Below are positions 1-3,000 of a stretch of DNA of 21,833 bases, in pieces. Location of the stretch: positions 1 through 21,833 of the forward strand of contig JBBIOM010000032.1 in assembly GCA_037443365.1 (NCBI GenBank), read 5' to 3'. Every line of letters starts with the position of its first letter. Positions within the stretch are counted from its first letter, which is position 1. A program made the position numbers. This stretch comes from Armatimonadota bacterium (GTDB lineage Bacteria; Sysuimicrobiota; Sysuimicrobiia; Sysuimicrobiales; Humicultoraceae).

Positions 1-3000
1 CGGGCAAGGAGGATAGGATGAGCAGGCAGGTATCCGCCGGAAGGAGAACCACCTTCTACCTGGGCACCTTGATCATGGCCGTCGGGGGCCTGGTGTTTGC
101 GTCGCTCTTTGTGACGATGGCGTTGATTGCGGGGCGTGACTCAGACCCAGAGACGGTCATCCCGTCGTTCGTGTTTCGCATGATACTGGCGATGGTGCTG
201 CTTCTCGCCGGCGGGGCGCTGCGGGCGGTCGGGGCGCGCGGTCTGGCCGGCTCCGGCGTGGTCCTGGATCCACAGCGGGCGCGCCGCGACCTCGAGCCCT
301 ACGCCCGCATGGCAGGCGGCATGGTCAAGGACGCCCTGGATGAGGCGGAGCTCAAACCCGCGGCAGGTGGGCCCGAGCGGGTCGTGATGATCAGGTGCCC
401 TGCCTGCAACAGGCTGAACGAGGAGGACTCGAAGTTCTGCCAGGAGTGCGGCGGGAAACTGTGAACTCCTCTGTTGTTGTGAACCCCCTGTGAAGAAGCC
501 GCTCGTCGGCGTGCTCATGGGCGGCCCCTCGCCCGAGCGCGAGGTGTCGCTTGCCTCGGGCAGCCGCGTCCTTGCCGCGCTCGACCGCGCGCGCTACGAG
601 GTGCTGCCGCTGCCGGTGCCATCTGCCGGCGCATGGTTCCCGCCCGCGGACCTCGACGTCGCCTTCATCGCCATGCACGGACCGTTCGGCGAGGACGGAA
701 CGGTGCAGGGGATGCTGGAGTTCCTGGGCATTCCCTACACGGGCTCGGGCGTCCTGGCGAGCGCGCTCGCAATGGACAAGCGGCGTTCGCGGCAGCTGAT
801 GGCGCTAAACGGCGTGCCCGTGCCCGGATACCTGGCAGTGGACCGCGCCGGGCTGGGGGCCAGGTTGCCCTCGCTGGTGGATGAGGTCGCGCACACGCTG
901 GGCTTTCCCTGCATGGTCAAGCCCAATGCCCTGGGCAGCAGCATCGGGGTCAGCCTGGTGCGGCGGCCCGAGGGCCTGGAGGCCGCCCTCCTGGAGGCGC
1001 TGGGCCTCGATCGGGCCGCCCTCATCGAGGAGTACCTCACCGGCACCGAACTGACGTGCGCGATCATTGACGACCCTGAAGGCGCCGGCCCGGTGGCGCT
1101 GCCGCTCGTGGAGATCGTGCCCAAGCGGGAGTTCTTCACCTACGAAGCCAAGTACACTCCGGGAGCGGCCGATGAGATCTGCCCGGCCCGGCTGCCCGCA
1201 TCCGCGGTCTGGCGCGCGCAGTCGGCTGCGCTGCGCGCCTATCGCGCTCTTGGGTGCGCCGATTTCGCGCGCGTGGACCTCTTCGTCCGCGAGGCCGATG
1301 TGGCCGTGCTCGAGGTGAACACGATTCCCGGGCTGACCGACAGGAGCCTATTCCCGCAAGCCGCGCTGGCCGCCGGGCTGGAGTTTGCGGTCGTACTGGA
1401 CCGCCTGATCGCGTCGGCGCTGCGCCGCGCGCGGAAGCGGCACGAGGAGGTGGGGAACGAATGACGCCCCCAGCAGGGCAGAACTGGGTGGTGAAGTCGC
1501 ATGCGCTGGGCAACGACTACCTGGTGCTCGATCCGGCCGCCCTCACCTTCGAACTGACGCCCCGCGCGATACAGCGCATCTGCGACCGGCACACGGGTGT
1601 CGGCTCCGACGGCATCCTTGCGCTCGCGCCTTCGGCGCGGGCGGACTTCGGCCTGCTCATCTACAACCCCGACGGCAGCGAGGCCGAGAAGAGCGGCAAC
1701 GGCCTGCGCATCTTCGCCAAGTTCCTGTACGACCACGGCTACACCGACCGTGCTGCCTTCACCGTGGACACGCCCGGCGGGATCGCGGGCATGACGCTGC
1801 ACCTCGTGGATGGGCGCATTGACCAGATGACAGTGGACGTAGGGCGCGCGACCTTTCAGAGCACCGCGATCCCCGCTACGGGTCCAGCCCGCGAGGTGGT
1901 GGACGAGATCATCGAGGTCGGCGGCCAGCAGCTGGAGATCACGGCCGTGTCCGTGGGCAACCCGCACTGCGTCGTCTTCGTCCCCGACCTGGCGCTCGTT
2001 GACCTGCACCGTCTCGGTCCGCTGGTGGAGACCCATCCCCTGTTTCCCAGGCGCACGAACGTGCAGTTCGCGCAGGTCGCGGCGCGCGACAGCGTGCGGA
2101 TACTCATCTGGGAGCGCGGCGTGGGCGAGACGATGGCCTCTGGTACCAGCGCAGGCGCGGTGGCCGCGGCCGCTGTGCGCGAGGGCGCAACTGACCGCGC
2201 GATGACGGTCTCTGCTCCCGGGGGCGACCTGCGCGTGACCGTGGGTGAGGACTGGAGCATCAGCGTGACCGGGCCTGCGTCCGAGGTCTTTGCAGGAGTG
2301 CTCAGCGCGGACCTGGTGGCGGCAGTGGGAGGGCAGCCATGAACCGCAAGATCCTCTACGTGATCCTGGACGGGGTCGGCGACCGGCCGATCGGGGCCCT
2401 GGGAGGCCGCACCCCGCTTGAGGCAGCGCACACACCGCATCTCGACCGCCTGGCAGAAGCGGGCCAGCAGGGGCTGGTCACAACAGTGGGGGAAGGCATC
2501 GCGCCCGAGTCGGACGTGGCGGTCGTGGCCATCCTCGGATACGATCCCCTGGTCTACCACGTGGGCCGGGGCCCGCTGGAGGCGCTGGGAGCCGGGCTGG
2601 ACTTCAGGGACGGCGACCTGGCGCTGCGCGGCAACTTCGCCACCGGCGGGGAGGGCGCGCTGATAGTTGACCGGCGCGTAGGACGCAACCTCTCCTCACA
2701 GGAGGCGCGTGTGCTGGCCGAGGCGGTCACCGCGCAGATCACGCTCGAGAGCGCGCCCGCCAGGGTCGTGGCGTCCGCCACGATCGGCCACCGCTGCGCG
2801 GTGGTCTTCTACCCGAGCGAGGGCCGCCTCAGCGCCCAGATCTCCAACACCGATCCGGCCTACGCGCGCGTAGGCGGCATGGGCGTCGCGCGCGCCACGT
2901 TCGGGAACCAGATCGAGGAGTGCGTGCCGCTCGATGGATCGGCGGAGGCGAGCACTGCCGCGGCGCTGGTGAACGAGTTCACCTGGAAGAGCCGCGCCGT

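Follow-up and report, generated by a model that had tools for sequence, protein, structure and literature searches.

A probable Ser/Ser-type diaminopimelate epimerase coupled to ddl and the D-glutamate gap of the CSP1-3/Sysuimicrobiota lineage

How does a bacterium that carries the genes for peptidoglycan synthesis obtain its D-glutamate when no glutamate racemase gene is found in its genome, and does the DapF encoded in overlap with its D-alanine--D-alanine ligase have any part in this? The question arises from the window analysed here, a stretch of 21,833 nucleotides from a genome placed by tree labels in the CSP1-3/Sysuimicrobiota lineage, a phylum of uncultured bacteria from soil and hot springs. 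To our knowledge, the presence of D-glutamate at stem-peptide position 2 is regarded as universal, and few routes to this residue have been described. Lacking MurI, Dat, and MurL, with a divergent MurD and a sole, cysteine-free DapF, this phylum presents a testable gap. We found no published description of this gap or of the MurD subfamily described below, with most subscription papers outside the reach of our search, and a term search of the accessible main text of two CSP1-3 reports (PMC11604079 and PMC11962464) met neither the word "racemase" nor a passage on peptidoglycan synthesis.

Our genome set comprises 94 genomes from one order of the phylum, 54 of them of high quality, with the window genome labelled G000 and its relatives G0xx. 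The tallies take in two unpublished genomes, G017 and G025; only two observations depend on G025 alone, namely one YgeA-type locus and a partial match to MurL.

The ddl-dapF-apgM locus

The overlap of ddl and dapF reported by the initial annotation is present in the window as an ATGA shared by the stop codon of one gene and the start codon of the other, and a second ATGA overlap joins the end of dapF to the start of apgM (Table 1). With a ribosome-binding site (GAGGAGG) ca. 10 nt 5' of its start, dapF is translationally coupled to ddl; we took the ATG as its start and rejected a GTG frame at position 1254 as an over-extension. Both genes are single-copy in the window genome, with one phmmer match for ddl and no second dapF.

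Table 1. Features of the ddl-dapF-apgM locus and the linked candidate gene. Positions are those of the window except for the last row, which gives contig and positions in G000.
Feature	Position	Strand	Evidence or remark
ddl, D-alanine--D-alanine ligase, 324 aa	490..1464	+	TIGR01205, 285.8 bits vs cut-off 245.65; NF002378, 323.4 bits, over cut-off
ATGA overlap, ddl stop/dapF start	1461..1464	+	sequence
dapF, Ser/Ser-type diaminopimelate epimerase, 293 aa from ATG 1461	1461..2342	+	TIGR00652, 237 bits vs 114.65
Ser78 (AGC), site of E. coli DapF catalytic Cys73, motif EKSGNG	1692..1694	+	alignment
Ser227 (TCT), site of E. coli DapF catalytic Cys217, motif MASGTS	2139..2141	+	alignment
apgM-type cofactor-independent phosphoglycerate mutase	2339..3616	+	TIGR00306, 400 vs cut-off 320; third conserved member of the run
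MetC/MGL-family PLP enzyme gene	C12:25118-26287		upstream of ddl, same strand in relatives

Across the order, PF01678 matches occur in 88 of 94 genomes, including all 54 high-quality ones, and ddl is matched in 86. The proximity of the two genes, previously counted in 62 to 64 of 93 genomes, comes out higher here: among the 84 genomes with both genes listed, 81 carry them on the same contig at most 2 kb apart, and the remaining three have them on separate contigs. All 21 loci that we inspected from end to end, those of 20 relatives and that of the window, show the ddl-dapF pair, followed by apgM in 19 cases and preceded by a GntR gene 5' of the run in 11, while a PdxA-family gene sits between ddl and dapF in three. 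Because these genomes come from a single order and the glycolytic apgM is linked almost as tightly, the ddl-dapF-apgM run is one inherited arrangement, i.e., synteny, and not the product of many independent pairings. The pairing of ddl with dapF requires no role in D-glutamate supply; both genes make precursors of the stem peptide.

Known routes to D-glutamate

In agreement with the view that this phylum makes peptidoglycan, murC, murD, murE, murF, mraY, murG, ftsW, ftsI, and alr were all found in the window genome. MurI had been reported as absent from all of 28 genomes (TIGR00067), and this gap is borne out by our larger set, though the zero is not: a single genome of 94 (G056) has a match over cut-off, which may be mis-binned because its contig is only 2,019 bp long. 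Weak TIGR00067 matches in 46 further genomes are the aspartate-racemase-type gene discussed below. The earlier controls, matched in nine of ten cases, correspond here to 14 genomes with matches in ten and scores over cut-off in eight. Within the limits that metagenome-assembled genomes set to every gene absence, the MurI gap is real.

The D-amino-acid transaminase model TIGR01121 is over cut-off in none of the 94 genomes. The sole class IV aminotransferase of the window genome passes the cut-offs for IlvE (TIGR01122) and PRK08320 and stays below that of TIGR01121 (198.6 vs 277.45), just as the initial annotation had it; G014 and G055 carry an additional Dat-like paralogue, also below cut-off. 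MurL had been left unsearched, and searching for it has widened the gap, with NF041275 over cut-off in 0 of 94 genomes; the positive control, a record of Xanthomonas sacchari, scores 836 bits. One partial match of 107.6 bits comes from G025, on a short contig beside a transposase-like fragment. With the X. sacchari MurL as query, no orthologue was found in the window genome, and the best match (48 aa, E 1.4e-4) was discarded because its motifs are those of an NAD-dependent sugar epimerase-type protein.

Several other proteins of the window genome were considered and set aside. A PF01177 match at C12:34961 looks, by motif reading alone, like a hydantoin-racemase-type protein at a peptide-transporter locus and matches no NCBIfam family, nor the aspartate-racemase profile. 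Its enolase-family proteins scored as OSBS/N-succinylamino-acid racemase type (one scanned) and not as L-Ala-D/L-Glu epimerase, and its proline-racemase-family and PhzF genes are nearest to hydroxyproline dehydratase and PhzF. A search of the same genome for D-glutamate cyclase (PF07286) gave no match.

A DapF with serine at both catalytic positions

We aligned the window DapF, which has two PF01678 domains, to the solved structures 9MRO, 8QZY, 3EJX, and 5HA4 and found serine at the positions of both catalytic cysteines of the E. coli enzyme (Table 1). The same holds for all 30 aligned sequences of the phylum (G000 plus the 30 loci with the best scores, less one that was truncated) and for 120 of the 120 top homologues. 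Residues N64, G74, N75, N157, H159, N190, E208, R209, and G218 are retained in 30/30 sequences and N11 in 29, with one gap. Of these, N64, N157, N190, and R209 bind the distal end of diaminopimelate (DAP), and in PddB, a DapF relative with changed substrate, it is the distal-site residues that are replaced (PMC8225329).

DapF with this Ser/Ser arrangement is in the literature as an epimerase type, DapF-SS (Lamer et al. 2025, J Mol Biol 437:169375, via PMC13728532). The window protein belongs to this type already in print, as a member of the DapF family by TIGR00652 with serine at both catalytic positions, and it shares with DapF-SS the fold family and the intact DAP-binding residues (PMC13728532). 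Unlike in Anabaena sp. YBS01, where DapF-SS accompanies a Cys/Cys enzyme as a second copy (PMC13728532), the Ser/Ser protein is the only DapF of its genome, apparently across nearly the whole phylum, and is coupled to ddl. The window genome encodes dapA, dapB, and lysA, a DapL over cut-off (558 vs 507), and a DAP-type MurE with a DNPR motif; with a single dapF, it therefore needs this protein for meso-DAP and lysine whatever else DapF may do. Both this pathway context and the conserved residues make it very likely that the window DapF is a working DAP epimerase.

A divergent MurD subfamily

MurD, found in 89 of 94 genomes, had been described as canonical, and this description does not stand. 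The protein of the window genome passes TIGR01087 (279 vs 212), but conserved changes affect positions T16, S116, F161, D182, R186, K319, K348, and A414 in E. coli numbering. In an alignment of 47 rows (46 genomes, with G000 entered twice), K319 is replaced by Leu, R186 by Asp, F161 by Arg, S160 by Asn, and S116 by Phe or Tyr without exception, while D182 is His in 44 rows and A414 is Glu in 46; position 347 is Arg throughout, and position 348 is variable, with Arg in 21 rows. The catalytic K115, E157, H183, K198, R302, D317, and T321 are kept in 47/47 rows, S415 and R425 in 46, and the aromatic contact at 422 is kept as well. An AlphaFold model (pLDDT 91.5) searched with Foldseek returned the MurD fold only, with 3LK7 as the best match.

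Positions 182, 319, and 348 steer the choice between D- and L-glutamate in MurD and MurD2 (PMC8788868), and the phylum resembles the Xanthomonas MurD2/MurL route (NF041275; PMC8788868) in having no murI and a MurD altered at 182, 319, and 347 to 348. Unlike Xanthomonas, it has no MurL, its MurD falls in a separate clade, and the combination of Glu182 and Arg348 of MurD2 (Glu at 182 in X. sacchari) is not seen, with His at 182, Arg at 347, and no fixed residue at 348. We did not accept the K319L change as proof of L-glutamate use, given that residues other than lysine at this position are common among ordinary MurD representatives.

One motif of this subfamily was found in 200 stretches among 185,579 genomes, of which 179 were confirmed and 80 are among the matches listed. 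In a quick tree of 81 rows, built from a quick search only, the subfamily forms one clade composed of a Sysuimicrobiota group (99), a second group whose loci encode a gene module (99), and unresolved, dcw-embedded sequences of Patescibacteria. MurI is over cut-off in five of the 40 genomes behind selected MurD loci, all five among the six dcw-type Patescibacteria, whose MurD has the GGxR, ESF, and DYRxR motifs in common with that of the window genome. Because these members of a rare subfamily mostly have MurI, the dcw-type MurD probably still takes D-glutamate, and D-glutamate is probably still the substrate of MurD in the phylum. One further selected locus belongs to G013 of the same phylum.

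The module group accounts for 27 of the 80 MurD loci listed, with MurI over cut-off in none of the 26 tested. Its loci encode a ThrC-like PLP enzyme; an ATP-grasp ligase and an NlpC/P60 protein are usually present as well, and a LysW-like carrier often is. We rejected such a module for Sysuimicrobiota: no carrier ending in EEK with ThrC-like PLP enzyme and ATP-grasp ligase was found in the window genome, and the profile of the module's ATP-grasp ligase gave only two partial matches, both in one of the 94 genomes. An association of Ser/Ser DapF with this MurD subfamily was likewise discarded, as the readable DapF motifs in 33 other genomes with such a MurD are of the Cys type.

Candidate sources of D-glutamate

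An aspartate-racemase-family gene that the initial annotation overlooked is present in most of the genomes. A score-based list holds a full-length PF01177 protein in 63 genomes, of which three are YgeA-type proteins at other loci, and two further copies at contig edges, next to dksA and lspA, bring the remaining 60 to around 62 of 94. The gene order ileS-racemase-dksA was seen directly in 29 loci (28 with ileS and 28 with dksA) as well as for both partial copies, whereas 31 more assignments rest on score and length. In G080, for example, the gene lies at C1:630374-631024. The protein matches the Pyrococcus aspartate racemase 1JFL (E 9e-59), and all four proteins scanned are over cut-off for NF052483 and TIGR00035. 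It has the two cysteines of known aspartate/cysteate racemases, for which RacD offers a functional precedent: when over-expressed, this aspartate racemase rescues a murI mutant of Vibrio fischeri (PMC12502697). The glutamate activity of the ileS-dksA protein is putative, and its gene is missing from the clade of the window genome, in which ileS is directly followed by dksA; the junction is equally intact and devoid of the gene in 4/4 further genomes, with a fifth contig lacking ileS. In the reading we favour, this putative racemase would most likely supply D-glutamate in some two thirds of the genomes.

That a PLP enzyme could make D-glutamate had also been suggested, and a candidate does exist in the form of a MetC/MGL-like gene in 84 of 94 genomes and 51 of the 54 high-quality ones (not found in G046, G081, and G082), but its product stays below the cut-off of the Ala/Glu racemase model NF041088 (326 vs 629), which none of 41 genomes exceeds. 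MetC of Wolbachia and Thermotoga has PLP-dependent glutamate racemase activity (Ferla 2017, as cited in PMC5885031), and E. coli MetC racemises alanine (PMC5814848). The phylum protein belongs to the same PLP family as these enzymes and the NF041088 racemases (PDB 9IZ5) and differs from them in its sub-threshold score, its closer relationship to methionine gamma-lyases, and a YQA(T/S) motif of its own after the catalytic Tyr. It is a tentative and rather doubtful candidate for the D-glutamate source of the window genome.

In all 47 genomes with both genes on one contig, the MetC/MGL-like gene lies upstream of ddl and shares its strand, within 3 kb in 16 and within 10 kb in 39, a count that leaves out genomes with the two genes on different contigs. 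Because an opposite-strand HAD gene intervenes, it is not part of the ddl operon, and the link is one of synteny only. In the window genome, contig C12 probably abuts the window in an arrangement matching that of G030; in G083, the two genes look truly unlinked. No high-quality genome lacks both the aspartate racemase and the MetC-like gene, yet this is expected by chance, and we do not use it as evidence.

Weighing the explanations

We lean toward the view that the locus encodes a Ser/Ser DAP epimerase in an inherited run of precursor genes and that other enzymes supply D-glutamate through a side activity, an account in which gene content, motifs, and synteny were observed and all activities are inferred. 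The run would be an old one, passed down through the phylum's single order, in which Ddl would provide D-Ala-D-Ala and DapF would convert LL-DAP (made via Asd, DapA, DapB, and DapL) to meso-DAP for MurE and LysA. DapF would, with good confidence, not be the main source of D-glutamate, which the unusual MurD most likely still adds. The side activity would most likely reside in the two-cysteine protein at ileS-dksA in roughly two thirds of the genomes and, in the clade of the window genome, most likely in a PLP enzyme with the MetC/MGL-family protein as best candidate. Against this account, a single source shared by all genomes would be simpler than a patchwork of two, and neither candidate is universal, while DapF alone is present in 54/54 high-quality genomes.

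That last point speaks for the initial reading of a bifunctional DapF that supplies D-glutamate as in Chlamydia, for no other candidate tested is as widespread in this phylum without MurI, Dat, or MurL. As in Chlamydia trachomatis, a DapF-family protein and mur ligases occur in a genome without murI; the translational coupling to ddl, the Gly at E. coli Q44 common to the chlamydial enzyme, and the idea that a low side activity could suffice in a slow grower point the same way. Yet the presence of DapF in all these genomes is expected anyway from the need for meso-DAP, the pairing with ddl is a single inherited arrangement that includes apgM, and Gly44 is also found in ordinary cyanobacterial and plant DapF. 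The chlamydial-type model NF038284 is clearly missed (80.9 vs a cut-off of 350 bits). Chlamydial DapF requires PLP, has a remodelled pocket, and needs both cysteines to rescue a D-glutamate auxotroph, with C72A and C207A failing to do so (PMC5885031); the phylum enzyme has serines instead, though alanine mutants leave room for natural serines. Where the chlamydial pocket carries V145, equated here with E. coli N157 by the residue-number offset to H147 (PMC5885031) and not by alignment, the phylum sequences keep N157 along with the other distal-site residues. This reading has thus held up poorly, and we consider it unlikely.

An equally unlikely proposal is that MurD does not load D-glutamate at all, with MurI unneeded as MurD would either add L-glutamate for later inversion by an epimerase or take another substrate such as D-aspartate. 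It draws on the substitutions at positions that steer the D/L choice and their neighbours (D182H, K319L, R186D, F161R, S116F/Y, and Arg347), on the aspartate-type racemase kept in most genomes, some 30 kb from murD, and on a sister clade of this MurD that, in genomes lacking MurI, is accompanied by a PLP enzyme and an ATP-grasp ligase. It is opposed by the lack of MurL, by His and not Glu at position 182, by the frequency of non-lysine residues at 319 in ordinary MurD, by the kept contacts T321, S415, aromatic-422, and R425, by the co-occurrence of MurI with the closest dcw-type relatives, and by the window genome having neither the aspartate racemase nor the module genes. Taken together, that MurD attaches L-glutamate, to be inverted by an undiscovered epimerase, or some residue different from D-glutamate, or that the Ser/Ser DapF became a glutamate racemase, is possible but clearly the lesser prospect; if true, the whole phylum would use a peptidoglycan route unexplained by any known enzyme set, and either reading would break the rule that position 2 is filled by D-glutamate from MurI, Dat, or MurL. 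Compared with the favoured side activity of other enzymes, scavenging of D-glutamate from the environment or from peptidoglycan fragments, with no dedicated racemase, seems improbable. A V. fischeri strain mutated in murI and racD, with an altered GltS, is indeed sustained by micromolar D-glutamate (PMC12502697), and the phylum is described as capable of oligopeptide uptake and peptidoglycan degradation (PMC11962464). Against this, no GltS-family transporter was found in the five genomes searched (with controls matching in 2 of 14), the window genome has no mpl orthologue or true L-Ala-D/L-Glu epimerase, and some families of the phylum are reported to be autotrophic (PMC11604079).

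The ddl-dapF locus

Both catalytic serines of the Ser/Ser-type DapF are read from codons of a fixed kind across the loci read, with AGY at the first (window 1692-1694) in 49 of 49 readings and TCN at the second (window 2139-2141) in 46 of 46, some genomes being counted twice. The gene immediately upstream of ddl encodes a membrane protein whose C terminus carries a zinc ribbon; it showed no conservation at the other loci read. Three family-f1 genomes (L259-L261) have ddl and dapF separated by an inserted PdxA-family gene.

Racemase, PLP-enzyme and mur genes

A gene of the aspartate/cysteate racemase family sits between ileS and dksA-lspA, is conserved in most of the phylum and has been lost from the clade of the window's genome (G000). 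That genome encodes a MetC/MGL-family PLP enzyme that falls under every NCBIfam cut-off, carries the conserved motifs YTRW(G/A)NPT and YQA, and belongs to a gene lying upstream of ddl in synteny kept across the phylum; a fold-type III PLP protein is also present (see the table). Of 20 MurC sequences from the phylum, at least 90% show the changes H355N and E358K (positions as in E. coli). Next to the distant MurL-like gene of G025, another, unpublished genome of the phylum, lie a gene for an ABC transporter and a fragment resembling a transposase; the contig is possibly mis-binned.

Features and their coordinates (L, individual loci, with positions counted within each; C, contigs of G000)
Feature	Position	Remark
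Zinc-ribbon membrane protein	window 18-464	under Pfam cut-offs
ribD-ribE-ribBA-ribH	window 12667-16148	named from translation
Aspartate/cysteate-racemase-family gene	L117:1480-2193; also L101-L129	
MetC/MGL-family PLP enzyme	C12:25118-26287 (L221:5119-6288)	minus strand
Fold-type III PLP protein	C27:8044-9264	D-amino-acid aldolase/dehydratase type
MurC	C10:40017-41453 (L044:5018-6400)	
Distant MurL-like gene	L130:517-1983	G025; short contig
Atypical-MurD module	L135, L138, L141, L147, L151, L154, L161-L163, L165, L168, L169, L171, L179, L184, L185, L187, L189-L192, L200, L201, L205-L207, L209	
dcw-embedded MurD of the phylum's subfamily	L139, L140, L144, L146, L152, L186	Patescibacteria

Atypical MurD in other phyla

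Atypical MurD occurs in a module hosted by Chloroflexota, Dormibacterota, Patescibacteria and others, where it is accompanied by a ThrC-like PLP enzyme and usually also by an ATP-grasp ligase and NlpC/P60. A LysW-like carrier with the terminus Glu-x-Lys is found at 12 module loci and a D-glutamate-cyclase-like domain at seven; MurI exceeded its cut-off in none of the 26 tested genomes with the module. One bacterial locus (L134:277-4748) encodes a fusion of an aspartate-racemase-like domain to a long C-terminal domain, followed by NlpC/P60 and then atypical MurD. At three of the six Patescibacteria loci with the dcw-embedded form, murI lies within 5 kb.

Riboflavin genes

Elsewhere in the window, the leader near 12400-12660, ahead of the ribD-ribE-ribBA-ribH run, may be an FMN riboswitch.
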